The position numbers and the translations under genes were made by a program. Below are positions 26,961-46,196 of a DNA stretch of 64,000 nt, in pieces. Source of the DNA: an uncultured Candidatus Binatia bacterium (GTDB lineage Bacteria; Desulfobacterota; Binatia; Bin18); the NCBI GenBank assembly GCA_965200965.1, contig OZ241744.1, forward strand, positions 2,720,001 to 2,784,000, given 5' to 3'. Position 1 is the first letter of the stretch, and the number at the start of each line of letters is the position of its first letter. The notes beneath the pieces were generated by a model. That model worked only from the letters and a program-made list of their open reading frames with translations. It ran no database searches and had not been told where the DNA came from.

Positions 26961-27407
26961 GTGCTTGAAACCGGCCTGCTGCTGACTGGCTGCACGCTGT
27001 TCGGGGCCGCGGCCGTGTATGACCTGCGCTTCCGCTCCATCCCCGACCGGGTGCCGGCCGGGCTGCTGGCCGTGTTTGGCGTGTATGCCGGCGTCGCCGA
27101 CCAAGGCCCCCTGCTGTGGGCACATCTGGCCACCGCCGTGGTCCTGCTGCTGGTCGGCTTTGGCCTGTTTGCCGCAGGCGCACTCGGCGGCGGCGACGGC
27201 AAGCTGCTGGCCGGTGCCGGCCTGTGGGTCGGCCCGCTCGATATCAGTCTGTTTCTGGCCGGCCTTGGCCTGCTCAGCCTTGGCCTTGGCCTGCTCAGCC
27301 TGCTGCCGCTGGCCGCCACCCGCCGGCTGCGGTCCAACCTGCCGCTGGCCGTTGCCATTGCCCCGCCGGCCATTGTCGTGCTGAGTTCACGCGCATGTTC
27401 CGCCTGA
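26961..27407 (+). CDS. cpaA: Flp prepilin peptidase (A24 family, CpaA/TadV)
   Basis: YDL..R.IP and GGGDGKL aspartate motifs; hydrophobic; adjacent to cpaB. Confidence 0.85.
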   Translation: MLETGLLLTGCTLFGAAAVYDLRFRSIPDRVPAGLLAVFGVYAGVADQGPLLWAHLATAVVLLLVGFGLFAAGALGGGDGKLLAGAGLWVGPLDISLFLAGLGLLSLGLGLLSLLPLAATRRLRSNLPLAVAIAPPAIVVLSSRACSA

Positions 27408-27414
27408 CACGCCT

Positions 27415-28287
27415 ATGCGACGCTATCGTTCCGTGCTGCTGATTGTGCTGCTGGGGATCGTCCCGGTCATCGCCCTGGTGATCAGCGTGTGGCTGTACTT
27501 TGGCGAACGGCCGGCCGAGCCGCCGGCCGAGCAGGTCGTGGAAGCACAGCCACCCCCGCCGGCCGAACCGCCGCCCCCGCCGGTTGATGTGTGGGCGGCG
27601 GACCGCAACCTGGAGGTCGGCGCACTGCTGACTGCCACCGATATCGTCGCCGTACCGATCGAGGCCGCGGCCGTCCGTTCGGATCACCTGCGCCGTGACC
27701 AGACCAGCCTGTCGGAGCTGGTCGGCTCGGTGGTGCGCAAGCAACTGCTGGCCGGTCAGCCGCTCACCTGGACGCAGCTGGTGCGGTCCGGCCAGGACGG
27801 GTTTCTGGCCGCGGCGCTCGCGCCCAACCGCCGGGCCGTGACCATTACGGTCAACCAGGAGACGAGTCACGCCGGCCTCATCTCGCCGGGCGACCGGGTC
27901 GATGTCATCTTCACCATGCAGACCGATAGAGCCAACCCGCTCAGCGCCGTCAGCCGGACGGTCCTGGAAAATATCCGGGTGGTGGCCGTCAACCGGCGGG
28001 TGGAGCCTGTTGCCGGCGAGGCCCAGCCCCAGGACGGCGAAGGCGGCCGGCGGGATGCCAGCCAGACGGTGACGCTCGAAGTCCTGCCCCTGGAGGCCGA
28101 CCGGCTGGTGCTGGCCACCAGCCAGGGGAGCCTGTCGCTGGCGCTGCGCCCGCTCAGCCGGTCCGGCCGCTCAGGCCGCCGTCCACAGAGCGGCGTCGCC
28201 ATGCTCCTGCCCTCCGAGCAAGAGGAACCGGTCCGTGTTCAGGTCTACCGCGGTGCCAGCCGGGAAGAGGTGCTGCTGGCCGAATAG
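27415..28287 (+). CDS. cpaB: Flp pilus assembly protein CpaB/RcpC
   Basis: N-terminal TM, SAF domain, RAVTI, PGDRVDVI, VTLEV, LSLALR. Confidence 0.9.
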   Translation: MRRYRSVLLIVLLGIVPVIALVISVWLYFGERPAEPPAEQVVEAQPPPPAEPPPPPVDVWAADRNLEVGALLTATDIVAVPIEAAAVRSDHLRRDQTSLSELVGSVVRKQLLAGQPLTWTQLVRSGQDGFLAAALAPNRRAVTITVNQETSHAGLISPGDRVDVIFTMQTDRANPLSAVSRTVLENIRVVAVNRRVEPVAGEAQPQDGEGGRRDASQTVTLEVLPLEADRLVLATSQGSLSLALRPLSRSGRSGRRPQSGVAMLLPSEQEEPVRVQVYRGASREEVLLAE

Positions 28288-28296
28288 ACCGCCGGC

Positions 28297-29259
28297 CTAG
28301 CCGTTCAAGCTGCGCAGGGCCTCAAGGGCCATCAGGGCACCCGGCCCGGCAACCAGCAGAATCGTGCCCGGCGTCACCAGCAGCAGCATGGGCATACTCA
28401 TCAGCACCGGCAGGCGCTCAATCTGGGCGGCGATGCGGGCCGCCCGCTGGAGGCGCTCGCTGGCGGCAATGTTCTGCATGGACTGGGTGAGCGGTGTGCC
28501 ATAGCGCTCGCCCTGCACAATGGCGGTGGCCAGGTCGCGCAGCCCCTCTATTTCGGTCCGGGCGTACAGGTCATTCAGGACGGTCTTGCGGTCAGCCCCA
28601 ATGCGGAGTTCGGCCTCAACCTGGCTGAACTCCCGGGCCAGGTCGGGGGTCAGCGACCCGAGCTCCTGGGCAACCCTGGTCAGCGAGCGATCAAAGGTCA
28701 GGCTGGATTCCAGGCACAGGGTCAGCAGGTCAAGGGCGTCGGGCAGGGCGGCGACCATTCTGCGGTGCCGGCGGGCGACCAGATAGCGCAGGCCCATCTC
28801 GGGCAGCATCCCGCCGATCACCGCCCCAAACAGCCCGGCCATGATAATCAGCAGGGTATAACTCCCCAGCAACTCACTGTGTGCCGCCCAGAAGCCGGTC
28901 AGCAGGCCGCCGGCCAGGGTGACGACGAGCTTGATGGCCATGAACACCGACAGGGCGTCGGCCTGTCGGAAATCGGCCTTGCCGAGGAGGCGGCGCAGTT
29001 TTTCCCGCTCGTCAATCCCGACCGGGACCAGCATGGAGGTAGACTTGAGGACGCCAAACAAGACCTTCAGGTGCAGGGGGCGGCCCGAGGCTGTGCCGCG
29101 GGCGCGGGTCCTGGGTTCATCATGGACCGCCCGGGCCCGGGTCCGTACCCGCCTCAGCCGACGGTCAAGCACCTTGCTCCGGTGGACCTCCTGCCACGCC
29201 AGACGGCCTGAGACCGCCATAACAGGCAGGCCAACACCAAGGATCAGCAGGATGAACAT
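28297..29259 (-). CDS. tadC: Tad pilus inner-membrane platform TadC
   Basis: T2SSF domain LPDALDLL..CLES, Q.ERYGT; ATG after GGAGGAG. Confidence 0.85.
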   Translation of the reverse strand: MFILLILGVGLPVMAVSGRLAWQEVHRSKVLDRRLRRVRTRARAVHDEPRTRARGTASGRPLHLKVLFGVLKSTSMLVPVGIDEREKLRRLLGKADFRQADALSVFMAIKLVVTLAGGLLTGFWAAHSELLGSYTLLIIMAGLFGAVIGGMLPEMGLRYLVARRHRRMVAALPDALDLLTLCLESSLTFDRSLTRVAQELGSLTPDLAREFSQVEAELRIGADRKTVLNDLYARTEIEGLRDLATAIVQGERYGTPLTQSMQNIAASERLQRAARIAAQIERLPVLMSMPMLLLVTPGTILLVAGPGALMALEALRSLNG

Positions 29260-29328
29260 AGGGGGCTCCTCCGTCTCGGGAGTGAAGGTATCGCCGTCCT
29301 CTCGATCTGGCGACAGGTTCACTCCTTC

Positions 29329-30360
29329 TCAGCGGACGACGCGGGCGGCCAGGCTGCGGGCTACGATCAGCCCAAGGACGACACCGCCAATGCCGTAGCG
29401 TAGCAGGCTGGTGCCCGAGTCGGTAGAGAACAGGATTTCGACCGCCTCCGGGTTGGTGAGATGCTGAAAGGCCAGTACCGCGACCGGAATCGCGGCGATA
29501 ATCATCAGGGTCAGCCGGGTCTGGGCGGTGGCGCTCTGGGCCTTGAGGGTGGTTTCACGGCGGGCGCGCAGGGTGGCCGACAGATTGCCGAGCGTGCCCG
29601 AGATCGCCCCGCCGGTCGTCCGTTGCAGGCACACCGCGGAGGCAAACAGGGTAAACTCGGAGATGCGCACCCGGGCCGCAGTGCCACGGATGACGGTCTC
29701 TGGGTCAAGGCCAGCGTCTGTGCCTTCCTTGATTGAGCCCAACACCTTGCTGACCGGCGGCTGGACCTCATCGGCTACCGCGGCGATGGCTTCTGTTGAG
29801 GGCAGGCCGGCCCGCATCAGGCGCACCACATGGTCTACGGCCTCGGGGAAGAGCCGCAGAAACTCGGCCCGCCGGCGGGAGTCCTGGAGGGCCAACACGG
29901 CATAGCTGGCCGCCAGCCAGCTGAGCAGGGCCAGCGCCACGCCCGAGGCCAGTCCAAAGCGGGTGAAGAGTGCCACGATACAGACCACGAGGCCGGCCAG
30001 TCCGGCCAGGCCGAGCGCTTTGGGCAGGGCTTTGTCGGCCTCCAGCATGGAGAACTTGTGCTCAATCCGGTCCAGCAGCCAGGAGTTGGCCCGCTGCTGG
30101 CGGAAGACGCTGATCTCGACCGGGGCCTCACCGTCGGCTTGGGCCTCACCGCTCAGCGGGGCGGCCACCCGCCGCAGCCGGCGGTCAAGGGCTTTGCGCT
30201 CATTGCGGCTATCGAGCCACAGGATGACGCCGAGGGCGACGACGAGCAGGGCGGTCAGCCCGCTGATCAGCGCCAGCATCAGGCTGCCGGCCATCGCCAG
30301 GACGACCACGAGCGGGATCAGCACGCCCACCACACAGGCGACAAGCACCACCGGGGTCAT
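29329..30360 (-). CDS. tadB: Tad pilus inner-membrane platform TadB
   Basis: FPEAVD..VR..RAG, QRTTGG; ATGA overlap with ATPase stop. Confidence 0.85.
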   Translation of the reverse strand: MTPVVLVACVVGVLIPLVVVLAMAGSLMLALISGLTALLVVALGVILWLDSRNERKALDRRLRRVAAPLSGEAQADGEAPVEISVFRQQRANSWLLDRIEHKFSMLEADKALPKALGLAGLAGLVVCIVALFTRFGLASGVALALLSWLAASYAVLALQDSRRRAEFLRLFPEAVDHVVRLMRAGLPSTEAIAAVADEVQPPVSKVLGSIKEGTDAGLDPETVIRGTAARVRISEFTLFASAVCLQRTTGGAISGTLGNLSATLRARRETTLKAQSATAQTRLTLMIIAAIPVAVLAFQHLTNPEAVEILFSTDSGTSLLRYGIGGVVLGLIVARSLAARVVR

Positions 30361-31772
30361 GCCGCAACCTCCACCTTGGCTCCGCTCTCCTGGAGCACTT
30401 CCATCAGTTCGGCCCGCAGGCCGGCGGCCTCCACCGCTTCCATCCACGAGGGCTGACGGCCCGCGCCCTCAAACACATGCGCCTCGCCCGGCCTCCGCCG
30501 CCACATCTCTTCGGTCGTGACGATCTCGCCTTCCAGCCCGGCCACATCGGTGATGCTGGTCACACAGCGGTGGCCGGAGCGCAGCCGGGCCATCTGGACG
30601 ATGATATCAAGGGCCGACACAATCTGTCGTCGGATGGCCATCAGCGGCATGTTGCTGGCGGTCATCATCAGCATATTCTCCAGCCGCATCAGCGCGTCAC
30701 GGGGGTTGTTGGCGTGGACGGTACACATGGAGCCGGGGTGGCCGGTGTTCATCGCCTGCAACATTTCGTTGGCTTCTTCGCCCCGGACTTCACCGACAAT
30801 GATCCGGTCGGGCCGCATCCGCAGGGCGTTAATCAGCAACTCCCGGATCGTGACCTCGCCCGTGCCCTCGGCGCTCATGGTGCGCGTTTCCAGCCGGACG
30901 ACATGCGGCTGCTGGAGTTGGAGTTCGGCCGAGTCTTCGATGGTCACGAGCCGATCGGTATGGCTGATCTCGCGCGACAGGGCGTTCATGAAGGTCGTCT
31001 TGCCGGCCCCGGTACCGCCGGCAATCAGGATGTTCAGCCGGGCTTTGACGCACAGCTGGAGCAGTGTAGCCATGACGGGGGTGAAGGTATGACGGGCGGC
31101 CATTTCTTCGAGGCCGATGCCCTTGACCACAAAGCGGCGGATGGAGATGGCCGCCCCGTCAAGGGCCAGCGGCGGAATAATGATATTGACCCGGCTGCCG
31201 TCGGGCAGGCGAGCATCCACCATCGGGCTGGCCTCGTCTACCCGTCGGCCAACCCAGCCGGCGATGCGCTGGGCAATGTTCAGCAGGTGTTGCTCGTCGC
31301 GGAAGCGGATGTCTACCGGCTCCAGCTTGCCCCGGCGTTCGACATAGACCGACTTGGTGCCGTTGACCAGGATGTCGGAGATATGCGGGTCATTGAACAG
31401 CGGCTCCAGCGGGCCAAGCCCCTTGATGTCGTCTACCAGCCGGCTGACGACCTTCTGGCGGTCAAGCGGGGTCAACTCCGCGGCAGGGGAGTCATCCTGA
31501 TCGAGAAAGGCCCGGAGTTGGACGGCGAGCGCGTCACGGTCCAGTTCAGCGGCCTTGGCCATATCGAGGTTCTGGACAATGACCGGGTGTAACTCCGCGG
31601 CCTTGTCGGCGATCAGGCTCGAGTCGGTTGAGGTGCGGACCGGGGCGATGGATTCGACCGGCTCGGCGACTGCCGGCGCGTCCCCGCGGTCCTGGACCGG
31701 CTCAGCGCTTTTGTGTTCCCGGGCCTGTTCCGAGGCCGTCTTGGGCCGGCGTCCAAAAAGGCTGCGTGCCAT
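30357..31772 (-). CDS. cpaF: Tad pilus assembly ATPase CpaF/TadA
   Basis: Walker [38 protein letters not shown]. Confidence 0.95.
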
Positions 31773-31846: not shown

Positions 31847-32986
31847 TCATCCCTCATCCCTCTCTTGCGCCAGCGACACCGCCTGGCGCGTCAGACTGCT
31901 GACAAACTGCTCAAGGGCCGCGCGATACTTCTTGCTCAGGTTGCGCTCTGGCCAGCCGTGATTGGTCGCCGCCGGCAGGGCCGGTTCAAACGGAATCGTC
32001 ACATCGGGGTTGCGGCCGGCCAGGGCGTAGCGGATTTCGTCGCCGGCCAGAGCGCTTTTCCTGGCCCGGGTGTGGCTCTCGACCAGGATGACTGAGCGGT
32101 CCTTGCCCAGCAGGGCCAGGCGGTGGACGGCCCGGTTGAGGCTGACCAGGGTCGGTTCATAGACCAGGACCCGCTCGTCGGCGTGCTCAAAGAGCGAGAC
32201 CAGGGTATCGGTATCGGTCATGCCGTCTACAATAACGAGGTGCGAGCGGTTGGCAAGCTGTTCGGTCAGCCATTGGACTGCCCCCGCGGCCGGCTGCGGG
32301 GGCAGGCTGTCGCCGGCCCGGTAGCCGTAGACCGAGATGCGGGGCGAGGCCGCGGTCCGCACGCCGTCAATCAGGTCGGGGTTCGGCTCGGCGCTGGCGG
32401 CGTTGTCAAGCACTTCTTCGAGACCCCGGGCCGGCTCAACATCGAGCATCAGCGGCAGCGCCCCGGAGGTCCGCTCCAGGTCAAGCGCCGACACATAGCT
32501 GCCCTGGCTGGCCGCGGTCCGGGTCGTCACCGCGGCCAGGGTGGTGGCCCCGCTGCCGCCGCATCCGGCAAAGGCGATGACCCGTCCGGCGTACAAGCGG
32601 GTCGGGCCGTCGTCGCTTTTGAGGGCGGTTGTCATCGCGTCGTGAATATCGCTGACCGTGACCGGCTTGGGCAGGTAGTCGCTGACCCCGTAGGCCAGCA
32701 GTTCGCGGGTGAAGCGGGCCGTGTCGTTGGAGCTGATAGCCACTACCAGGGTACCCAGTTCCACCACGCCGGCCAGTTCGTGGATACGCCCGGCCGGAAA
32801 CTCGCTGCCGTCGAGATCAACAAAGATCAAGCGGGGTGAAACCGAGTTGGCCAGGGTCTTGATGGCCGTAACAATATCGCCGCGCTGCACCTGTGCGCCG
32901 CGGCCGGCCAGGGCCTCGTTCAGCACCTTTTCGGTGGCCGGGTCTCCGGCAAAGGCGCGGATTTCGTTGTTGTCGGGTGCTTCCAT
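31847..32986 (-). CDS. cpaE: CpaE/TadZ-like pilus localisation protein (receiver-like + MinD-like)
   Basis: Receiver-like N-terminus (GVSDYLPKP); degenerate Walker A GGSGATT; position before cpaF. Confidence 0.8.
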   Translation of the reverse strand: MEAPDNNEIRAFAGDPATEKVLNEALAGRGAQVQRGDIVTAIKTLANSVSPRLIFVDLDGSEFPAGRIHELAGVVELGTLVVAISSNDTARFTRELLAYGVSDYLPKPVTVSDIHDAMTTALKSDDGPTRLYAGRVIAFAGCGGSGATTLAAVTTRTAASQGSYVSALDLERTSGALPLMLDVEPARGLEEVLDNAASAEPNPDLIDGVRTAASPRISVYGYRAGDSLPPQPAAGAVQWLTEQLANRSHLVIVDGMTDTDTLVSLFEHADERVLVYEPTLVSLNRAVHRLALLGKDRSVILVESHTRARKSALAGDEIRYALAGRNPDVTIPFEPALPAATNHGWPERNLSKKYRAALEQFVSSLTRQAVSLAQERDEG

Positions 32987-33014: not shown

Positions 33015-33368
33015 TCAGGATGACTGGCCGGTGCGCTCAATCAGAGCGCGCAGAGCGGTCATGGTTTCATCGTGTCGTCTTGTGTCCTCCTCGTGCTGTC
33101 GTTGCAGAGCGGTCATGGTTTCATCGTGTCGTCTTGTGTCCTCGTGGTGCTGCTTGTCCATGGCGGTCATGGTGGCTTCATGTTGCTTGTCCATGGCGGT
33201 CATGGTTTCGTGATGCTGCTTGTCACGGTGGTCGGCAGAGCGGCGCATGAGTTGGAGACCCCCGGCCAGGATGAGGGTCTGGCTGAGGCTGATGAGCAGG
33301 GCGGAGATGTCCACCCAAGTGGGCTGGCTGAGGCGGTCAATGGCTTCGATGATGCCCTGGTATTCCAT
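33015..33368 (-). CDS. Array copy 8: TM + His/Met-rich coiled-coil protein (117 aa)
   Basis: MEYQGII...; modules 11,11,7,11,7; ends LIERTGQSS. Confidence 0.75.
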   Translation of the reverse strand: MEYQGIIEAIDRLSQPTWVDISALLISLSQTLILAGGLQLMRRSADHRDKQHHETMTAMDKQHEATMTAMDKQHHEDTRRHDETMTALQRQHEEDTRRHDETMTALRALIERTGQSS

Positions 33369-33405
33369 AGGCTGGTGCTCCCTTGCAAGCGGCAAGCTGC
33401 CGGGC

Positions 33406-33741
33406 TTAGTGAGGGGACTGGCCGGTGCGCTCAATCAGGGCGCGCAAGGCGGTCATGGTTTCGTGGTGTCGCCTTGTGTCCTCCTCGTGCTGTCGTTCCA
33501 TCGCGGTCATGGTGGCTTCGTGCTGTCGTTCCATGGCGGTCATGGTGGCTTCATGTTGCTTGTCCATGGCGGTCATGGTTTCGTGATGCTGCTTGTCACG
33601 GTGGTCGGCAGAGCGGCGCATGAGTTGGAGACCCCAGGCCAGGATGAGGGTCTGGCTGAGGCTGATGAGCAGGGCGGAGATATCCACCCAAGTGGGCTGG
33701 CTGAGGCGGTCAATGGCTTCGATGATGCCCTGGTATTCCAC
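33406..33741 (-). CDS. Array copy 7 (111 aa)
   Basis: GTG start; modules 11,11,11,7; ILAWGL variant. Confidence 0.75.
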   Translation of the reverse strand: MEYQGIIEAIDRLSQPTWVDISALLISLSQTLILAWGLQLMRRSADHRDKQHHETMTAMDKQHEATMTAMERQHEATMTAMERQHEEDTRRHHETMTALRALIERTGQSPH

Positions 33742-33778
33742 AGGCTGGTGCTCCCTTGCAAGCGGCAAGTTGCCGGGC

Positions 33779-34147
33779 TTAGTGAGGGGACTGGCCGGTG
33801 CGCTCGATCAGGGCGCGCAAGGCGGTCATGGTTTGGTCATGGCGTCTTGTGGCCTCTTCGTGCTGCTTGTCCATCGCGGTCATGGCCTCTTCGTGCTGCT
33901 TGTCCATCGCGGTCATGGCCTCTTCGTGCTGCTTGTCCATCGCGGTCATGGTGGCTTCGTGCTGTCGTTCCATCACGGTCATGGTGGCTTCGTGCTGCTT
34001 GTCGCGGTGGTCGGCAGAGCGGCGCATGAGTTGGAGACCCCCGGCCAGGATGAGGGTCTGGCTGAGGCTGATGAGCAGGGCGGAGATGTCCACCCAAGTG
34101 GGCTGGCTGAGGCGGTCAATGGCTTCGATGATGCCCTGGTATTCCAT
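33779..34147 (-). CDS. Array copy 6 (122 aa)
   Basis: ATG start; modules 11,11,11,11,7. Confidence 0.75.
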   Translation of the reverse strand: MEYQGIIEAIDRLSQPTWVDISALLISLSQTLILAGGLQLMRRSADHRDKQHEATMTVMERQHEATMTAMDKQHEEAMTAMDKQHEEAMTAMDKQHEEATRRHDQTMTALRALIERTGQSPH

Positions 34148-34184
34148 AGGCTGGTGCTCCCTTGCAAGCGGCAAGCTGCCGGGC

Positions 34185-34562
34185 TTAGTGAGGGGACTGG
34201 CCGGTGCGCTCAATCAGGGCGCGCAAGGCGGTCATGGTTTCGTGGTGTCGCCTTGTGTCCTCCTCGTGCTGTCGTTCCATCGCGGTCATGGTTTGGTCAT
34301 GGCGTCTTGTATCCTCCTCGTGCTGTCGTTCCATCGCGGTCATGGTTTCATCGTGTCGTCTTGTGGCCTCGTGGTGCTGCTTGTCCATCGCGGTCATGGT
34401 TTCGTGATGCTGCTTGTCGCGGTGGTCGGCAGAGCGGCGCATGAGTTGGAGGCCCCCGGCCAGGATGAGGGTCTGGCTGAGGCTGATGAGCAGGGCGGAG
34501 ATATCCACCCAAGTGGGCTGGCTGAGGCGGTCAATGGCTTCGATGATGCCCTGGTATTCCAC
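34185..34562 (-). CDS. Array copy 5 (125 aa)
   Basis: GTG start; modules 11,7,11,7,11,7. Confidence 0.75.
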   Translation of the reverse strand: MEYQGIIEAIDRLSQPTWVDISALLISLSQTLILAGGLQLMRRSADHRDKQHHETMTAMDKQHHEATRRHDETMTAMERQHEEDTRRHDQTMTAMERQHEEDTRRHHETMTALRALIERTGQSPH

Positions 34563-34600
34563 AGGCTGGTGCTCCCTTGGCAAGCGGCAAGTTGCCGGGC

Positions 34601-34969
34601 TTAGTGAGGGGACTGGCCGGTGCGCTCGATCAGGGCGCGCAGGGCGGTCATGGTTTGGTCATGGCGTCTTGTGGCCTCTTCGTGCTGCTTGTCCATCGCG
34701 GTCATGGCCTCTTCGTGCTGCTTGTCCATCGCGGTCATGGTGGCTTCGTGCTGTCGTTCCATCACGGTCATGGTGGCTTCGTGCTGTCGTTCCATCACGG
34801 TCATGGTGGCTTCGTGCTGCTTGTCGCGGTGGTCGGCAGAGCGGCGCATGAGTTGGAGACCCCCGGCCAGGATGAGGGTCTGGCTGAGGCTGATGAGCAG
34901 GGCGGAGATGTCCACCCAAGTGGGCTGGCTGAGGCGGTCAATGGCTTCGATGATGCCCTGGTATTCCAT
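34601..34969 (-). CDS. Array copy 4 (122 aa)
   Basis: ATG start; modules 11,11,11,11,7. Confidence 0.75.
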   Translation of the reverse strand: MEYQGIIEAIDRLSQPTWVDISALLISLSQTLILAGGLQLMRRSADHRDKQHEATMTVMERQHEATMTVMERQHEATMTAMDKQHEEAMTAMDKQHEEATRRHDQTMTALRALIERTGQSPH

Positions 34970-35006
34970 AGGCTGGTGCTCCCTTGCAAGCGGCAAGCTG
35001 CCGGGC

Positions 35007-35330
35007 TTAGTGAGGGGACTGGCCGGTGCGCTCAATCAGGGCGCGCAAGGCGGTCATGGTTTCGTGGTGTCGCCTTGTGTCCTCCTCGTGCTGTCGTTCC
35101 ATCGCGGTCATGGTTTGGTCATGGCGTCTTGTGTCCTCCTCGTGCTGTCGTTCCATCACGGTCATGGTGGCTTCGTGCTGCTTGTCGCGGTGGTCGGCAG
35201 AGCGGCGCATGAGTTGGAGGCCCCAGGCCAGGATGAGGGTCTGGCTGAGGCTGATGAGCAGGGCGGAGATATCCACCCAAGTGGGCTGGCTGAGGCGGTC
35301 AATGGCTTCGATGATGCCCTGGTATTCCAT
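35007..35330 (-). CDS. Array copy 3 (107 aa)
   Basis: ATG start; modules 11,7,11,7; ILAWGL variant. Confidence 0.75.
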   Translation of the reverse strand: MEYQGIIEAIDRLSQPTWVDISALLISLSQTLILAWGLQLMRRSADHRDKQHEATMTVMERQHEEDTRRHDQTMTAMERQHEEDTRRHHETMTALRALIERTGQSPH

Positions 35331-35368
35331 AGGCTGGTGCTCCCTTGGCAAGCGGCAAGTTGGCGGGC

Positions 35369-35779
35369 TTAGTGAGGGGACTGGCCGGTGCGCTCAATCA
35401 GAGCGCGCAGAGCGGTCATGGTTTCATCGTGTCGCCTTGTGTCCTCTTCGTGCTGTCGTTCCATCGCGGTCATGGTTTCGTGGTGTCGTCTTGTGTCCTC
35501 TTCGTGCTGTCGTTGCATCGCGGTCATGGTTTCATCGTGTCGTCTTGTGTCCTCGTGGTGTTGCTTGTCCATGGCGGTCATGGTGGCTTCATGTTGCTTG
35601 TCCATGGCGGTCATGGTTTCGTGATGCTGCTTGTCGCGGTGGTCGGCAGAGCGGCGCATGAGTTGGAGGCCCCCGGCCAGGATGAGGGTCTGGCTGAGGC
35701 TGATGAGCAGGGCGGAGATGTCCACCCAAGTGGGCTGGCTGAGGCGGTCAATGGCTTCGATGATGCCCTGGTATTCCAT
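35369..35779 (-). CDS. Array copy 2 (136 aa)
   Basis: ATG start; modules 11,11,7,11,7,11,7. Confidence 0.75.
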   Translation of the reverse strand: MEYQGIIEAIDRLSQPTWVDISALLISLSQTLILAGGLQLMRRSADHRDKQHHETMTAMDKQHEATMTAMDKQHHEDTRRHDETMTAMQRQHEEDTRRHHETMTAMERQHEEDTRRHDETMTALRALIERTGQSPH

Positions 35780-35817
35780 AGGCTGGTGCTCCCTTGGCAA
35801 GCGGCAAGCTGCCGGGC

Positions 35818-36153
35818 TTAGTGAGGGGACTGGCCGGTGCGCTCAATCAGGGCGCGCAAGGCGGTCATGGTTTCGTGGTGTCGCCTTGTATCCTCCTCGT
35901 GCTGTCGTTCCATGGCGGTCATGGTGGCTTCATGTTGCTTGTCCATGGCGGTCATGGTGGCTTCGTGCTGTTTGTCCATGGCGGTCATGGTTTCGTGATG
36001 CTGCTTGTCGCGGTGGTCGGCAGAGCGGCGCATGAGTTGGAGGCCCCCGGCCAGGATGAGGGTCTGGCTGAGGCTGATGAGCAGGGCGGAGATGTCCACC
36101 CAAGTGGGCTGGCTGAGGCGGTCAATGGCTTCGATGATGCCCTGGTATTCCAC
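35818..36153 (-). CDS. Array copy 1 (111 aa)
   Basis: GTG start, different upstream sequence without a clear RBS; modules 11,11,11,7. Confidence 0.7.
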   Translation of the reverse strand: MEYQGIIEAIDRLSQPTWVDISALLISLSQTLILAGGLQLMRRSADHRDKQHHETMTAMDKQHEATMTAMDKQHEATMTAMERQHEEDTRRHHETMTALRALIERTGQSPH

Positions 36154-36182: not shown

Positions 36183-36479
36183 CTACTCAGTGACGATGGT
36201 TGTGACAGCCGGCAGTTCCTTCACTTCGTCGTCGGACCAGCGGGTGTAGGCCCCGGAGGTTGAGCCGTGGGCGTCTCTGGGCCGCTGGCCGGCGGCCTTC
36301 ATGTTTGTGGTGTACACGGTATCGGCGGCGTCAAGCTGGGTGCGGGCTTCTTTGAGCCCGGCCAGGGCGGCGCGGGTTGATGGGAGGGCGGTGCGGTCTA
36401 CGGCCATCGGCAGCACGGCGCAGCCGGCAGCAGCGAGGCTCAGACACAGGGCCAGGGTTGTGGATGTCGTTTGTCTCAT
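36183..36479 (-). CDS. Small lipoprotein downstream of the secretin
   Basis: MRQTTSTTLALCLSLAAAGC lipobox; occupies the position where CpaD-like genes usually lie. Confidence 0.6.
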   Translation of the reverse strand: MRQTTSTTLALCLSLAAAGCAVLPMAVDRTALPSTRAALAGLKEARTQLDAADTVYTTNMKAAGQRPRDAHGSTSGAYTRWSDDEVKELPAVTTIVTE

Positions 36480-36529: not shown

Positions 36530-39174
36530 TTAATAATAATAGCCACGCAGGCGGCGGCCAGGGCTGGGCTGGTCGCGGTTGTTGTCCACAGGAGGAAACG
36601 TTTCATCTCGTCCTTGCGGGATGGTGGCGGCGTCGGTCAGCCGGGCGGTGACGACAATAATCAGTTCGGTGGCACTGGAGCGGACCGAGCGGGTGCCGAA
36701 CAGCAGGTTGACGATTGGGATGTCTTTGAGGAGTGGCACTCCGCTTTCGCGCGATTCGCTCTGGTCACGGTACAGGCCGGCGATGACGATGGACTCGCCG
36801 TTGCCGACCTCGACGGTGGTCTCGGCCCGGCGGCCGTCAATGACCGGGATATCTACTCCCGCGGCCCGCAGGGCTTCGGTCTCGGAGCGTTGCGAGACCT
36901 CGGAGCGGACGGTCAGCACAATCCGCCCGCTGTCTACCACGGTCGGCACAAAGTCGAGCAGGACGCCGAACTTCTTATAGGTGAAGATGATCGCCCCGTC
37001 CTCAAAGCCGGCCGGCAGCGGAAACTCGCCGCCGGAAAAGAAGCTGGCGGTTTCGCCCGATACCGCGGTCAGGCTGGGCCGGGCCAGGACGCTGACGAGG
37101 CCGGCGGTGGCCAGGGCGTCGAGCATGGCGGTGACCCGCGTACTGCCGTCGATAACCTGGTTCGTGAAAATCCCCGAGGCCGCGCCACCGGGCAGAGCCG
37201 TCCGCAAGAACTCGCTGGCCTCTTCATCAAGGAAGTCGCGTCCGATGAAGAGGTTTGTCTGGCCCCCACCGGCGTGGGTGTCAACGATCTCCCAGTTGAT
37301 GCCCAGGGCTTCGCTGACGCTGCGGTTCATCTCGGCGATCTGGACCTCGAGGTTGACCTGCTGTGCGCCGGAGACGATGAGGCGGTTGGTGACGGGAACC
37401 TCGCTCGGCAGGGCGGCCACGGCCAGCCGCACGGCCAAGTCGGCCTGGGCTGAGGAGGCGACTGTGCCGCTGAGTTCAACGCCTTGGCTGAGCTGCCGGA
37501 CGGAGATCCCTTTGAGGGCTTCTGCGCCCTCCAGGGCGGTCTGGACCGGGCCGACATCAATCACCGTGGCCACCGTCCAGGCGGCCAGCATCTCGCCGGC
37601 GGCGTCAAGTACGGCGACTGAGGTGCGGCCAATGGCTTTGCCGACGAGGTGCAGGACGCCGGAGGAAACGAGGCTGACATCGGCGATGTCGGGGTTGCCG
37701 ATGAAGACGGAGCCGGCCGGCGCGTCAAGGCGCAGCAGGCGGCTGTGGCCGAGGGGCAGGGTCAGGAGGGGGGCGGTGTGGGGCGGTGCGGGCTCTTCCT
37801 TCCCCTCCGGGGGGGAGGGAAGAAAAGGTGGCTGGGGCGGGCTGCCTGTGGGCGTGGGGCTGGCGGTTTGTGTTCCTCTGTCTGAGGGGGAGGAAGTGGG
37901 GGTGCGTGGCGTTGTACCGGGGGTCTGTGCTCCCTCTCCCCTTGGGGTTTGGGGTGAGGGGTCTTCGGGAGAAGGAACACCTGGGCGGTCCTGGCTGCCT
38001 GGGTCTACAGGAGGAGCGGTAGTGGTTTGCGCGGTTTGTGTGGGAGCGGGTGTCCCCGCTGCCTCTCCCTCTGAGGGGAGGGAAGGAGAGGCGGTTGCGG
38101 CTCGGCGGTGGTCTTTGCGCAGGTCAAGGACAATTTTGGTCATGCCGCCCTGGCGCAGGGGGAAGGTGCGCAGGTGGTAGTCGCCGGTGAGGGTGGCGGT
38201 GAAGGTGCGGCCGTCGGGGTCAAGGACGGCTTGGCTGATGTATGCGCCGAGGTGGTGGCGGATTGGCGCAAAGTCGGTGTGCATCTGCCGGCCAAACTCC
38301 ACGGTGAGGAGTCTGGCGTCCAGGCTGGCGGTGTAGCTGACGGTCTGGGGCCAGTCAAAGACGATGCGGCCGTAGTCGTTATGCGCCCAGGCACGGGTGA
38401 TGACTTGCTCGGCGGCAGCCCCCTCCGCCCGGCCCTCCGCCTCTGGGGGGGCGGTCTGGTCCGGGTCTTGCTCCCTCTCCCCTTGGGGGCTGGGGTGAGG
38501 GGTTGGGGTGGGCTGTGTGGGAGCGGGTGTTCCCGCTGCCTCCTCCTCTGAGGGGAGGGAACGAGAGGCGGCTGTGGCTCGGCGGTGGTCTTTGCGCAGG
38601 TCGAGGACAATTTTGGTCATGCCGCCTTGGCGCAGGGGGAAGGTGCGCAGGTGGTAGTCGCCGGTGAGGGTGGCGGTGAAGGTGCGGCCGTCGGGGTCAA
38701 GGACGGCTTGGCTGATGTATGCGCCGAGGTGGTGGCGGATTGGCGCAAAGTCGGTGTGCATCTGCCGGTCAAACTCCACGGTGAGGAGTCTGGCGTCCAG
38801 GCTGGCGGTGTAGCTGACGGTCTGGGGCCAGTCAAAGACGATGCGGCCGTAGTCGTCGTGCACCCAGGCACGGGTGATGACTTGCTCGGCGGCTGTCCCC
38901 TCTGTCTGGCCCTCCGCCTCTGGGGGGGCAGGAACGGGAAGGTGTGGCCCGCTGTCTGGGGGGGGGGTGGTCCGGGTCTTGCTCCCTCTCCCCTGTGGGG
39001 GTTGGTGTGGGCTGTGTCGGAGCGGGTGTCCCCCCTGCCTTCCCCCTCCAGGGGGGAGGGGATATGTGGCTGCCCGGTCGGCTCGGGGTCTGCCGGCTGG
39101 GCGTTGGCAGTCTTGTTGCCCCCTCCCATCCACAGCAAGAGGGCAACAAGGATTCCACATAGGAGTTTGGGCAC
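36530..39174 (-). CDS. cpaC: Tad secretin CpaC/RcpA with long duplicated N-terminal extension; frameshifted near the 5' end
   Basis: GNPDIADV N-domain, QVNLEVQIAE, SGETASF.SGGEFP, PLLKDIPIV.LLF; signal peptide (GTG 39174) lies in another frame. Confidence 0.85.
38035..38930 (-). repeat. 477-bp-period tandem duplication inside the secretin gene
   Basis: Near-identical AAEQVITRAW.H.DYGRIVFDW...KIVLDLRKDHRRA blocks (e.g. 38101 vs 38578). Confidence 0.9.
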
Positions 39175-39250: not shown

Positions 39251-39511
39251 TCAGGATGAGTTGCCGGTTGAGTTGCCGGTTGAGTTGCCGGTTGAGTTGC
39301 CACCTTGGTCTCTCGCGGCTGTCACCCCTGCGGCCATATCAGCCCGGAGGCGTGTGAGTGAGTCTACGATTTCCTGCCTAAAGGCTGCCACCGCGGCCCC
39401 GAGACCAAGGGCGACCGCGCCGACCAGCATGGCGTATTCCAGGGCGGAGACAGCCTTGGTGTTGCGGAGATAACGACGGGCGGTTCTGGCGTAGTGTCTG
39501 ATGCGGGTCAT
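39251..39511 (-). CDS. flp: Flp family type IVb pilin with (GNST)n tail
   Basis: Basic leader, A-VSAL-EY Flp motif, hydrophobic helix; GGAG RBS. Confidence 0.85.
   Translation of the reverse strand: MTRIRHYARTARRYLRNTKAVSALEYAMLVGAVALGLGAAVAAFRQEIVDSLTRLRADMAAGVTAARDQGGNSTGNSTGNSTGNSS
39257..39301. repeat. 12-bp tandem repeat (tgagttgccggt x3.75)
   Basis: Directly visible; encodes GNST repeats at the pilin C-terminus. Confidence 0.9.
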
Positions 39512-39585: not shown

Positions 39586-40077
39586 CTAGTTCAGGCTGGA
39601 TTGTGCAGCAGGGTCGGTGCGTTCAATGAGGACGCGGAGGGCCTCGCCTTGCTGGCGGAGGGCCTCGCCTTGCTGGCGGAGGGCCTCGCCTTGCTGGTGG
39701 AAGGCTTCACCTTGCTGATGGACTGCATCGCGGAAGGCTTCGCCCTGCTGGCGGAGGGCCTCGCCTTGCTGGCGGAGGGCTTCCATTGTCTCGGCGTGCC
39801 GGCGGGCATCGGCCTCCCCTTGGCGGGCAGATTCCTCCCCTTGGTGGGCGAAGGCGGCCATGACTTCCTCGTGCCGCTTTTGGTGCTCTTTCCCTCGTTT
39901 GTCGCTATCCCGGAGCATGTTCCGAATGCCTGACCAGATAATGGCGCATTGGGTGAGGCCGATCACGCCGGTGACGATGATCGAGACGACTTCTGTCCAC
40001 TTTGGCTCGTTGGCCGCCTGTTGGGCGGCCAACATGGCCTGCTGGAAGGCGAGTGTGGCGGTTTCAAACTCGGTCAT
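39586..40077 (-). CDS. TM + QQGEALR heptad coiled-coil protein (copy B)
   Basis: GAGAGG RBS; TM VVSIIVTGVIGLTQCAIIWSGI; 21-bp repeats; ends ALRVLIERT. Confidence 0.75.
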   Translation of the reverse strand: MTEFETATLAFQQAMLAAQQAANEPKWTEVVSIIVTGVIGLTQCAIIWSGIRNMLRDSDKRGKEHQKRHEEVMAAFAHQGEESARQGEADARRHAETMEALRQQGEALRQQGEAFRDAVHQQGEAFHQQGEALRQQGEALRQQGEALRVLIERTDPAAQSSLN

Positions 40078-40089
40078 GGCCTCTCTTCT

Positions 40090-40130
40090 AAACGACGGGC
40101 GGTTTTGGCGCAGCGTCTGATGTGGGTCAT
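40090..40130 (-). pseudogene. Relic 5' end of a second flp pilin gene
   Basis: GGAGAAGC-ATG then MTHIRRCAKTARR versus flp MTRIRHYARTARR; upstream sequence also similar. Confidence 0.7.
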
Positions 40131-40184
40131 GCTTCTCCTCTCAAAGAACTGTGATCATAATCATATGGGGCCTTACATTACAAA

Positions 40185-40676
40185 CTAGTTCAGGCTGGAT
40201 TGTGCAGCAGGGTCGGTGCGTTCAATGAGGACGCGGAGGGCCTCGCCTTGCTGGCGGAGGGCTTCGCCTTGCTGGCGGAAGGCTTCACCCTGTTGGCGGA
40301 AGGCTTCACCTTGCTGATGGACTGCATCGCGGAAGGCTTCGCCCTGCTGGCGGAGGGCCTCGCCTTGCTGGCGGAGGGCTTCGCCTTGCTGGCGGAGGGC
40401 TTCCATTGTCTCGGCGTGCCGGCGGGCATCGGCCTCCCCCTGGCGGGCGAAGGCGGCCATGACTTCCTCGTGCCGCTTTTGGTGCTCTTTCCCTCGTTTG
40501 TCGCTATCCCGGAGCATGTTCCGAATGCCTGACCAGATAATGGCGCATTGGGTGAGGCCGATCACGCCGGTGACGATGATCGAGACGACTTCTGTCCACT
40601 TTGGCTCGTTGGCCGCCTGCTGGGCGGCTAACATGGCCTGCTGGAAGGCGAGTGTGGCGGTTTCAAACTCGGTCAT
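40185..40676 (-). CDS. TM + QQGEALR heptad coiled-coil protein (copy A)
   Basis: Near-identical to 39586-40077 (599-bp offset) with a different heptad arrangement. Confidence 0.75.
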   Translation of the reverse strand: MTEFETATLAFQQAMLAAQQAANEPKWTEVVSIIVTGVIGLTQCAIIWSGIRNMLRDSDKRGKEHQKRHEEVMAAFARQGEADARRHAETMEALRQQGEALRQQGEALRQQGEAFRDAVHQQGEAFRQQGEAFRQQGEALRQQGEALRVLIERTDPAAQSSLN

Positions 40677-43373: not shown

Positions 43374-45062
43374 CTACTGGCCGGGCAGGGCAATTCTTAC
43401 CATTGTGCCCTGCCCGGGCAGGGATCTGAGAGAGATGCTGCCCTCGTATTTCTGCACAACATGTTGGGCTGTCGTGAGGCCCATGCCTTTTGCATCAGGC
43501 CTGGAGGTGTAGAACGGCTCAAACACCTTTTTTCGATGCTCGGCCTCAATGCCGTCTCCATTGTCGGCGATGATGATGAGCACCGTGTCATCCTCACGTT
43601 TGGTCTCGATGCGGATGAGGCTGTTCTTCTTGCTCCGGTGCTCAAGGGCGTACAGCGAGTTGTCAAGAACGCTGGTGACAATCAGCCCGATGTCGGCCTT
43701 GGCAGCCAGGACCTTGGGCAGCGGGTTCAACTCCTTGACGACGACCGCGGCCGTTTCGGCCTTGGTGCTTTCTACGGCCTCATCGATGCAGTCGTTGATG
43801 TTCAGCCGCTCCCGGGCGTTGTCCCCGGTCTGGAACAGCGACGGCAGGCGGTCGGCGACCTCGACAATATCGCCGGCCTGGGCACGGATGCTTGAGAGCA
43901 GCGCGGCCGCGGTTTTGAGCTCTTCGTCGGCCACCGGCGGCGAGCCGGCTTCGTTCGAGCGCAGCTTGGCCTGCACATCGTCAAGAATGTCCAGGTTGCC
44001 GGTGATGTGCTCTCCGCAGGAGGCCAACTGCCGGGCGACGACCTCCAGCCCGGCCCGCTGCGCCACGCCCTCCGCGGCGCGGTCGGGGCCGACGGTCTGT
44101 TGGTCGGCCTCCAGGGTCGCGATCAGATTGTCCAGCCCGTTGGACTGTCTGCGCCTGGACCGCTGGGCCAGCCCGGCCACCGGGCTGGAACCGGGGATAT
44201 CCGCCGGCGCTTCCTGGGGCGCGTTCTTGGGCAGGCGCAGGGCAATGGCCAGCCACATCAGCCACAGCGCCCCGCCCGAGGCCAGGATGCCGTTTTCGTA
44301 GTAGTCAACCAGAACCTCTTTGCGGTCGGCCTCGGCTTTTAGGTTGGCGCTCAGGCTCTCGCCATAGTCGCTGATGGTGCTGGATGTGGCCTCCTGAAAG
44401 AACGCCTCGGTCGGTTCGTATTTGTCGAGCAGCACGAGGCCGTGGCCAACAAGATTCTGGGCCGGGCTGGTCAGCACCGGGTAACGGGCGGTGATGCGAT
44501 TGCCCACCTGGACAAGTACGCGCGTCAGGCGTTCTTTTTCCGGTGGGGTCGGGGTGGTGATATAGGCGGTGATATCGTTGGTGACGGTCGAAACGCTGCG
44601 GACGAACGACGCGTTGCCGTTTCTCTGTCGTATCTGGTTGATGAGGGTGCTGGAGGCCTGCGGCAGGTAGCGGATGGAATTGCGCAGAACGGCATAGCCG
44701 GTCTTGAAGCGCTCTACTCTCTCTTCCTTGGCATCAATGGCGGTCAGGTAGGCGTTGAGATCATAGCGCATCCGTTCTGGCAGGTCAGGGATGGTCCGCA
44801 TGGTGTCCGACAGCTCGGCCTTGAGGCGTTCTATCCGGGGGATGAAGGAAATGAGGCCGTCAAAGTCAGACAGCGGGTCCGCTCGGACCCGGGCGGCCTC
44901 AACGCTCCACTGGGATTCAATCTGGTTGATCCGCTGAATAAGGGAAATGGCGAGCCGATGGTTGGCCGGCTGATTGGTGCGGGCCATCCAGTACAACCCC
45001 GCCGCGATGGTCACGAGAAACAGCGAGAAAAAGACGCCGATGGTGAGTGATCTGGATCGCAT
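43374..45062 (-). CDS. Membrane sensor with DAHL-type periplasmic domain and HATPase_c domain
   Basis: Two TMs; KEERVERFK..YAVLRNS.RYLP (DAHL-like); N box, DNG.GI, FEPF, GMGL; no recognisable H-box. Confidence 0.75.
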   Translation of the reverse strand: MRSRSLTIGVFFSLFLVTIAAGLYWMARTNQPANHRLAISLIQRINQIESQWSVEAARVRADPLSDFDGLISFIPRIERLKAELSDTMRTIPDLPERMRYDLNAYLTAIDAKEERVERFKTGYAVLRNSIRYLPQASSTLINQIRQRNGNASFVRSVSTVTNDITAYITTPTPPEKERLTRVLVQVGNRITARYPVLTSPAQNLVGHGLVLLDKYEPTEAFFQEATSSTISDYGESLSANLKAEADRKEVLVDYYENGILASGGALWLMWLAIALRLPKNAPQEAPADIPGSSPVAGLAQRSRRRQSNGLDNLIATLEADQQTVGPDRAAEGVAQRAGLEVVARQLASCGEHITGNLDILDDVQAKLRSNEAGSPPVADEELKTAAALLSSIRAQAGDIVEVADRLPSLFQTGDNARERLNINDCIDEAVESTKAETAAVVVKELNPLPKVLAAKADIGLIVTSVLDNSLYALEHRSKKNSLIRIETKREDDTVLIIIADNGDGIEAEHRKKVFEPFYTSRPDAKGMGLTTAQHVVQKYEGSISLRSLPGQGTMVRIALPGQ

Positions 45063-45101
45063 AGGCTGACTCCTGCGTCGGACACTTCGTCTTTGCGGGG
45101 A

Positions 45102-46196
45102 CTAGTTGCCGCTCTGGGCGAAAGCCCGTTCCGGGCTGACCAGGCCGCCCCTGCCACGGCTGCCCTGGACCTGTTTCACCGCGGCCGGCTCCTCAACCTC
45201 TTGCTGGAAATCGGGGTCTACCGGCTCTCCGGCCAGGGTTTTGATGAAGGCCACAATGGCATCCTTATCCTCATCCGGGGCTTCGCGTCCCAACTGAAAC
45301 TCGAACATCGCGTCAACCGCATCGCGCAAGGTCTCGGCGCTGCCGTCGTGCAGATAGGGGGCGGTGTGGGCTGCCATGCGTAGGCTGGGGACCTTGAAGG
45401 CGTGACGGTCGGCAATGTTGCCGGTGACATTGAAGCGGCCAAGGTCGGCTTCGGTGATATTGCCCCGCTTTTTGAAATACTCGTTGATGACGCCGAAGAC
45501 CTGGAACATATTCCCGCCCACGGCCGCCCCCTGGTGGCACGACACACAGCCGTAGCGTTTGAACAGCATATAGCCGTGTTCCTCCTCCTCGGTAATGGCC
45601 GAGGAGTCGCCTGTGAGCCAGCGGTCAAAGCGGCTGTTGTGTGTGGTCAGGGAGCGGACAAATTCGGCGATAGCGTCTTTGACGGTGGTGCGGGTGATAC
45701 TGTCCTCGCCATACACCTCCGAGAACAGGCGGGGATAGTCCTCGTCCTGAAAAAGTTTGGTGAGCACATCGGGCCAGATGCTTCCCATCTCAATGTTGCT
45801 CTGTATCGGTCCGTCAGCCTGGTCTTCCAGCGTCTCCGCCCGTCCGTCCCAGAACTGTTTGAAATTGAAATTGGCGTTGAGCACAGTGGGCGCGTTCACC
45901 GCGCCGAGCTTGCCCTGAATCCCGACCGAAACCTGCCTGCCGTCGTCGCCACCGGCCCTGAGATGGTGGCAACTGGCGCACGAAACAGAGTTGTCGTTTG
46001 ACAAGCGCACATCGTGGAACAGCCGCTTGCCCAGGCCGGCTTTGGCCACATCAACCTCAATGGCCGGCATTGGCTTGATCGGCTCTGCTGCCGCGGCCTG
46101 TCCAGAGCCGAGGCAGACCACACCGGCTATTCCCAAGCCCGCCAGCCGGCGGCGGAGCCGAGCCGGTTTCCTTGCGCTCTTTTGAGCTGTGTTCAT
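45102..46196 (-). CDS. Di-heme cytochrome c peroxidase/MauG family protein
   Basis: CASCH and CVSCH, LGKRLF.D.RLS, QFWDGRA, FKVPSLR, APYLHDG. Confidence 0.9.
   Translation of the reverse strand: MNTAQKSARKPARLRRRLAGLGIAGVVCLGSGQAAAAEPIKPMPAIEVDVAKAGLGKRLFHDVRLSNDNSVSCASCHHLRAGGDDGRQVSVGIQGKLGAVNAPTVLNANFNFKQFWDGRAETLEDQADGPIQSNIEMGSIWPDVLTKLFQDEDYPRLFSEVYGEDSITRTTVKDAIAEFVRSLTTHNSRFDRWLTGDSSAITEEEEHGYMLFKRYGCVSCHQGAAVGGNMFQVFGVINEYFKKRGNITEADLGRFNVTGNIADRHAFKVPSLRMAAHTAPYLHDGSAETLRDAVDAMFEFQLGREAPDEDKDAIVAFIKTLAGEPVDPDFQQEVEEPAAVKQVQGSRGRGGLVSPERAFAQSGN

Follow-up and report, generated by a model that had tools for sequence, protein, structure and literature searches.

Why should the operon of a Tad pilus hold eight tandem, ever-varying genes for a small membrane protein, and do these genes belong to the pilus? 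The question arises from the 64,000-nucleotide stretch of DNA analysed here (the window; G000:C1:2,720,001-2,784,000), part of the single-contig, 3,620,516-bp genome of an uncultured Candidatus Binatia bacterium. We label this genome G000, the related genomes G001, G002 and so on, and the fetched locus pieces L001, L005, L008 and so on. The eight genes belong to a family that has no name in the libraries and for which we found no earlier description. Because this family is scattered through these genomes, the array is likely an amplified passenger of the operon, not a dedicated part of the pilus.

Anatomy of the array

The array sits inside a Tad operon, between a lipoprotein gene and cpaE. 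Pfam matches of the flanking genes bear this position out, with a secretin, an ATPase, two platform proteins, CpaB, a prepilin peptidase and a weak match to Flp. A re-check of the open reading frames (ORFs) gave exactly eight intact, co-directional minus-strand ORFs from 36153 down to 33015, encoding 111, 136, 107, 122, 125, 122, 111 and 117 amino acids (aa), as an earlier reading of the letters alone (the sequence-only reading) had proposed. Lengths in parentheses are those of the 11- and 18-residue modules described below.

35818-36153, minus strand: array gene 1, 111 aa, GTG start (11+11+18), without the AGGGAG spacer
35780-35817, minus strand: first of seven spacers of 37-38 nucleotides (nt), each with an AGGGAG Shine-Dalgarno-like site
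35369-35779, minus strand: array gene 2, 136 aa (11+18+18+18)
35007-35330, minus strand: array gene 3, 107 aa, W36 variant (18+18)
34601-34969, minus strand: array gene 4, 122 aa (11+11+11+18)
34185-34562, minus strand: array gene 5, 125 aa, GTG start (18+18+18)
33779-34147, minus strand: array gene 6, 122 aa (11+11+11+18), its first 153 nt those of gene 4
33406-33741, minus strand: array gene 7, 111 aa, GTG start, W36 variant (11+11+18)
33015-33368, minus strand: array gene 8, 117 aa (11+18+18), with a C-terminal end of its own, 28 nt before cpaE

In all seven spacers, AGGGAG stands nine bases before the start codon; gene 1 is preceded by other sequence that lacks it. The first 153 nt vary by 0-5 bases between copies, and within the first 51 codons, which start with ATG or GTG, the sole amino-acid change is G or W at residue 36. 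Each of the eight proteins ends in LRALIERT. The middles are all distinct in sequence, copies 1 and 7, and likewise 4 and 6, being equal in module count. In each of these respects (spacers, shared N-terminus, constant end and differing middles) the sequence-only reading was accurate.

The genes follow a simple grammar: a constant part of 71 aa (70 in the last gene), then a number of 11-residue modules, then a number of 18-residue modules. The repeat units in the DNA measure 33 and 54 nt. It had been pointed out earlier that all changes in coding length are in-frame; this is true, but weak as evidence of selection, because units of 33 and 54 nt keep the frame automatically. His, Met, Leu and Ile recur with a period of 3.6 residues in the longest copy, and each protein contains 8-13 His and 7-11 Met. 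Repeats of 11 and 18 residues at about 3.6 residues per turn correspond to the hendecad and to 18 residues over five turns, and 11/3 and 18/5 are known non-heptad coiled-coil periods (PMC4786415). A scan for promoters and terminators found none within the array on the coding strand, with counts near chance.

An AlphaFold2 model from a 104-row family alignment consists of a short helix (residues 4-12) and one long helix (residues 18-107), with a mean pLDDT of 85.4 and a pTM of 0.50. Lysine and arginine together are commoner after the transmembrane (TM) segment than before it in 101 of 102 members (two of the 104 rows lack the motif), and the rod is therefore predicted to be cytoplasmic, with the N-terminus out and the C-terminus in. 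This bias and the structure models agree with the single TM segment and cytoplasmic coiled coil suggested from the sequence. At 0.15 nm per residue, the predicted rods would be about 9.3-13.7 nm long. When three copies were modelled together, the score was 0.69, against 0.00 for the best control; at least 90% of contacts were shared between runs, with a partner pLDDT of 81 or more. Of 30 solved homodimers, 20 reach the mark applied, as does 1 of 23 single chains; for a three-copy model these counts are only a rough guide. The modelled bundle is parallel and in register, and the near-invariant residues of the family, M1 excepted, are interface residues in at least one copy. The model supports self-binding as a parallel homo-oligomer, through a predicted face made up of the conserved Q30, G37, M41 and R48, the repeat His and Met, and the ALxALIERT end. 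A Foldseek search with the model gave no match, a result that says little in the case of a single helix.

A dispersed family, amplified twice at one site

Among 1.84 billion representatives (clusters at 50% identity), 650 match the family at E <=0.001 and 198 at 1e-10. G000 holds 26 family ORFs at E <=0.01 in a profile search, at about 14 sites by hand count, and three Binatia genera show 5-25 matches per genome. A single-query search detected the family in 17 of 61 related genomes and 3 of 33 genera; a profile search scoring at most 18 candidates per genome gave positives in 2 of 251 genomes sampled from the phylum, G000 among them. Two named matches of the protein search were Nitrospinae and Defluviicoccus bins. 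An RHxExM motif is conserved in the family, and some subfamilies carry His-free QQGEAL or RQGQAL heptads.

There was no significant match in Pfam, NCBIfam, PHROGs, PADLOC or the PDB, and the family scans yielded only weak coiled-coil or TM matches. The PDB sequence search returned a single match, at E 0.82, and the Pfam family Tir_receptor_C (E 5e-5 to 2e-3) fell under its own cut-off and was dismissed as compositional. The literature searched contained no description of the family; a 2023 survey of hendecad families lies outside that coverage and may include it. In the available part of PMC13580157 the words 'histidine', 'transmembrane' and 'DUF' are absent.

G007, a sister species of the same genus, carries five copies at the same site (L001), of 107, 136, 93, 125 and 82 aa. 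There the repeat unit fuses roughly 50 codons from the 5' end of cpaE with the final 22 of the lipoprotein gene, which leaves four truncated cpaE starts within the array; the unit of the window contains no piece of either gene and has the 37-38-nt spacer instead. As the duplication breakpoints differ, amplification happened twice. For the constant part, dS between G000 and G007 is 0.16-0.32 (63 codons, 40 non-independent pairs), and for seven flanking genes 0.19-0.26. The corresponding dN/dS is 0.31-0.65, and that of six tad genes 0.12-0.46. From this we infer a single ancestral gene under moderate constraint, with two separate amplifications. The alternative offered by the sequence-only reading, that of an amplifying gene family, is supported. 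At the duplication junctions of G007 there are also 75-aa chimeric ORFs that join the start of cpaE to the end of the lipoprotein gene (L001:9187-9414, 9737-9964 and 10383-10610); these are probably by-products of the duplication.

Near-identical repeats such as these could be suspected of being an assembly artefact of one or two genes. This is very improbable, because same-subfamily module variants occur on other contigs and G007 has an array at the same site, with another repeat unit; each copy in the window, moreover, has its own mix of substitutions and modules. The variants from other assemblies come from protein records: a 3,603,827-bp contig encodes proteins of 140, 107 and 89 aa, and contigs of 607-1535 bp encode six more, all showing further module counts among close relatives.

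Amplification of the family is also found away from the pilus. Arrays of four genes from a second subfamily occur in G000 (2,176-2,178 kb; L008:5405-7405) and in G007 (L095, G007:C1:200,500-205,400), at non-orthologous, non-pilus sites of the two species. The unit of the G007 array contains the 5' end of a Schlafen/AlbA_2 gene. G000 amplifies other genes too. Membrane proteins of about 800 aa are encoded by near-identical genes in tandem sets of 12 and 13 (271,736-303,105 and 1,131,749-1,165,140 of G000:C1, in part in L097); one has a PMT_2 glycosyltransferase-like match. Other small proteins of coiled-coil-like type have sets of 4, 3 and 2 genes, among them a four-gene array of a family without a Pfam match (G000:C1:2,391,270-2,393,429; L096) and a three-gene array of 116, 156 and 149 aa at G000:C1:2,995,044-2,996,537 that looks like DUF1640 by appearance (not scanned). 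In view of these sets, eight copies are not out of character for this genome.

The surroundings of the family are mostly particular to each genome. Neighbours were grouped in 130 of 150 loci, those in which a member was called; 147 of the 184 groups were confined to one genome, and the recurring ones included cpaE and two other genes in 4 genomes each, hydantoinase B in 5 and a dehydrogenase group in 7. Neighbours of family genes are more often accessory, 43 of 110 having a G000 orthologue against 48 of 78 controls (p=0.003). The upstream gene is co-oriented in 98 of 128 cases, a fraction not distinguishable from the G000 baseline of 0.705 (p=0.15). Around 139 family genes, the only enriched 8-mers were ribosome-binding-like words and duplicated copies, and therefore neither a cassette end nor a common flanking element that might explain mobility was found.

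Evidence on both sides of a pilus link

The other genes of the cluster are the following:

26961-28287, plus strand: cpaA prepilin peptidase (PF01478) and cpaB (PF16976), convergent, by Pfam
28297-31772, minus strand: cpaF ATPase (PF00437), tadB and tadC (PF00482), by Pfam
31847-32986, minus strand: cpaE/tadZ-like gene directly downstream of the array, with a weak receiver-domain match, named by its position before the ATPase
36183-36479, minus strand: lipoprotein-like gene, 98 aa, after the secretin; CpaD/RcpB by position only
36530-39160, minus strand: secretin RcpA/CpaC (PF00263, PF13629)
39586-40077, minus strand: copy b of a second family site in the cluster, 163 aa, of a different subfamily
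40185-40676, minus strand: copy a of that second site, 163 aa, between a tadG-like gene and flp

For cpaE, tadE/F/G and CpaD, the naming relies on position, with Pfam matches weak or absent. The gene before the array had been called a secretin-associated lipoprotein; it does encode a lipobox-like LAAAGC, but has no Pfam match. Its dN/dS between G000 and G007, about 1.08 (96 codons), is far above that of the other tad genes. The two copies of the second site (39586-40676) belong to a subfamily with heptad QQGEAL repeats, and G007 has only fragments there. Compared with a canonical Tad/Cpa cluster (cpaB-C-D-E-F-G-H), the window shares the peptidase, CpaB, secretin, ATPase, two platform proteins and a Flp-like pilin, and differs by eight extra genes before cpaE and two more before flp. 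In Sinorhizobium meliloti, cpaE1 directly follows cpaD1 (PMC10934763).

Several features of the cluster stand apart from the array. The secretin has an N-terminal domain duplicated internally (477 bp), and its linkers are proline-rich, with four copies of a short motif counted 116 times genome-wide; these are possibly in-frame insertions of a repeat element. The tail of the Flp-like pilin ORF is encoded by a perfect 12-bp tandem repeat of 3.8 copies (39257-39301). The cluster is headed by a di-haem cytochrome c peroxidase and a DAHL-domain histidine kinase (43374-46196, minus strand), which are kept in most relatives fetched and might provide redox-sensing control of the pilus. An Rfam scan of positions 26000-47000 of the window gave no match.

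If the array proteins were a dedicated pilus part, they would be expected wherever this cpaE occurs. This cpaE is present in 13 of the 61 genomes, at 15 loci. An intact family gene lies directly upstream at five of these (G000, G007, G001, G031 and the first locus of G006). Both G004 loci have a decayed copy, and the second locus of G006, with a cpaE almost the same as in G001, keeps five codons of the gene; at the other seven none was detected. In G002, G036 and G024, the 20 kb fetched around cpaE contain no detected family ORF. Conversely, five genomes that are 97-100% complete (G005, G014, G027, G033 and G034) show 7-25 family matches, which are matches and not copy numbers, and none to this cpaE query, other Tad genes not having been searched there. 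Among the Pfam and NCBIfam matches of the array and of 104 members, there was no Tad family. Intact presence at five orthologous loci only, together with those five genomes, led us to reject a Tad/Cpa core component; the array genes are most likely not a core or dedicated pilus part. The sequence-only reading had offered a repertoire of variants co-expressed with the pilus. As a repertoire specific to the pilus this is not supported, given those five genomes, 26 ORFs spread over G000, non-pilus arrays of four genes, and a gene that is decayed, deleted or undetected at 10 of the 15 cpaE loci. In L063 (G037) and L064 (G020), cpaE is split over two frames, as is cpaF in G020; these are possibly decaying Tad loci or assembly errors.

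Several observations nevertheless weigh against a mere passenger. Of 135 family sites in 11 genomes, 10 fall in the 15-kb Tad spans, where 0.51 would be expected; the sites come from searches with two different profiles, were counted by hand and are not independent, and the count had no control operon. When separate lineages only are considered, the probability of at least 5 separate events in Tad spans is about 2e-4. Three different gaps of the cluster have been used, and the cpaE site has been occupied by two different subfamilies and has seen two amplifications, a pattern that selection linked to the pilus could explain. In a FastTree phylogeny of 129 of 148 proteins (repeats removed; 19 without the anchor motif left out), 8 of 9 Tad rows cluster within a group of 21 whose support (86) is weak. 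The trees themselves rest on 84-85 columns, and the oligomer was modelled with three copies, a number from which the true one may differ. The homologues' neighbourhoods, which the sequence-only reading had wanted checked, give a partial link to the pilus.

A dispensable accessory of the pilus, recruited several times, could account for this excess: rods of graded length beside the inner-membrane platform would space, position or tune the CpaE/CpaF motor. The constraint on the array genes, comparable to that on tadB and tadC, is also consistent with such a role. The idea is unlikely, though worth keeping in mind, in the face of the loci without a family gene and of the G004 pseudogene, which lies beside an otherwise uninterrupted gene set. 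Two insertions are on the opposite strand (G031 and the second G006 locus), and a hotspot therefore fits better than co-expression. Other neighbours likewise recur in 4-5 genomes, and there is no pilus-specific clade. An IQ-TREE analysis of 45 proteins (9 Tad, 12 near and 24 random, with 5 poorly aligned or long rows kept from the random pool) needed 7 changes of the Tad label, and rejected a single clade of Tad-linked members at AU p=0.0007 (8 co-oriented rows) and 0.039 (5 before cpaE). More speculative still, a mobile rod cassette may have been captured repeatedly by pilus operons, the array being a shuffled, length-graded repertoire made with the pilus motor that tunes assembly or obstructs pilus-dependent phage entry; we give this little credence.

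Related families and a possible mode of action

Phages enter a further reading, which sees in the proteins membrane effectors of a holin-like or anti-phage kind, sited beside phage receptors and restriction genes. Among named Atlas clusters, the closest are BhlA/UviB holin-like ones, scoring 0.85-0.87 (below 0.9) on 163-167 shared features, which is no more than a lead. BhlA/UviB proteins (PF10960, TCDB 1.E.27) are likewise small with a single N-terminal TM segment, as described for the BhlA family (PMC9527704). Family members of G000 also lie between hsdM and hsdS (L005:5648-5824) and between the type III genes mod and res (L009:5841-6206). The array proteins differ from BhlA/UviB by having no HMM match, a long stalk of His/Met repeats and many copies per genome; PF10960 has no match in G000 and is outside the top 25 Pfam families of the 104 members. 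One member, used as a query, found nothing in phage records or viral contigs, and no endolysin, bacteriocin or prophage gene was found among the 73 neighbours, a subset, scanned with Pfam. The best PADLOC model covers at most 8 of the 104 members (best E 2e-4). In four genomes, with evenly spread 5-kb pieces as controls, PADLOC matched 9 of 110 neighbours against 4 of 78 controls (p=0.56), by which an enrichment in defence islands is rejected at this sample size and the anti-phage decoys imagined earlier find no support. Effectors of this kind seem doubtful to us. In G035, one neighbour of a family gene (L116:2-1276) matches a Cas13a model at E 1e-69.

The His and Met of the rods could have a chemical role. 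Their pattern may resemble the His/Met motifs of SilE-type proteins, and His/Met layers in the rod core might bind transition metals, copy number and length setting the storage capacity. The His and Met content of each protein, the place of the repeat His and Met on the modelled interface and the conserved RHxExM motif are in line with a metal store. Buried polar layers without metal are, however, common in coiled coils (PMC13580157), the heptads of some subfamilies are free of His, and no metal-handling neighbour recurs. We find such a store quite improbable.

Membrane-anchored coiled coils in many copies are known elsewhere. Bdr proteins of Borrelia have variable repeat numbers and a C-terminal anchor. 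They form an inner-membrane multigene family of unknown function (PMC10016077), and in this they are like the array family; their genes lie on cp32 episomes, and no scan gave a sequence match. In DUF1640/CCDC90-like proteins, the membrane anchor is C-terminal. These proteins (PF07798) are membrane proteins with a coiled-coil stalk found in prokaryotes and mitochondria (PMC4786415). The likeness lies in the membrane-anchored coiled coil, and such genes adjoin family members here; the array proteins differ in that their TM segment is N-terminal, they have no head domain, and no PF07798 match is listed for them or for the 104 members. The ATKxD/E beta-layer motif described at the start of the DUF1640 stalk (PMC4786415) is absent from the eight translations. 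MPN010/DUF16 of Mycoplasma is a coiled coil of unknown function (PMC4786415) from which the array proteins differ by their TM anchor; weak DUF16 matches occur in 4 of 104 members and in one heptad-type member at E 0.002, and are far from significant. The array family works like other membrane-anchored coiled-coil multigene families and is a member of none of those tested.

The anatomy of the array, the dispersal of its family, the double amplification and the frequent loss are facts of these genomes. The reading we prefer, on balance and with modest confidence, is that the array is an amplified member of this scattered family, acting independently of its neighbours as a non-enzymatic, membrane-tethered spacer or scaffold that rides the Tad operon; the spacer or scaffold function is the weakest part of this explanation. 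A single gene would have stood before cpaE in the ancestor of G000 and G007, and would first have been duplicated by illegitimate recombination. Unequal exchange between the 33- and 54-nt repeats may then have changed the copy number and reshuffled the modules. The genes would ride the Tad operon transcript, each copy being translated from its own ribosome-binding site, with products that are not a required part of the pilus: predicted parallel coiled-coil rods, membrane-anchored and cytoplasmic. Any benefit would come from dose or variety of length and not from the neighbouring genes, a step that is again the most fragile of the scheme. On this best reading, the family is a mobile, birth-and-death group of membrane-anchored rods riding on operons.

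G000 and G007 offer a natural case of repeated gene amplification and module shuffling, in the same gene and at the same site. If the rods act on the pilus, they would be a new variable accessory of Tad pili, and if the array is indeed a recruited, length-graded repertoire, it would form a variable accessory layer of these pili, of which no model organism is known to have an example. If they do not act on the pilus, they would be a good starting point for asking what leads these bacteria to maintain many copies of several unrelated families of membrane-anchored coiled coils that vary in length.

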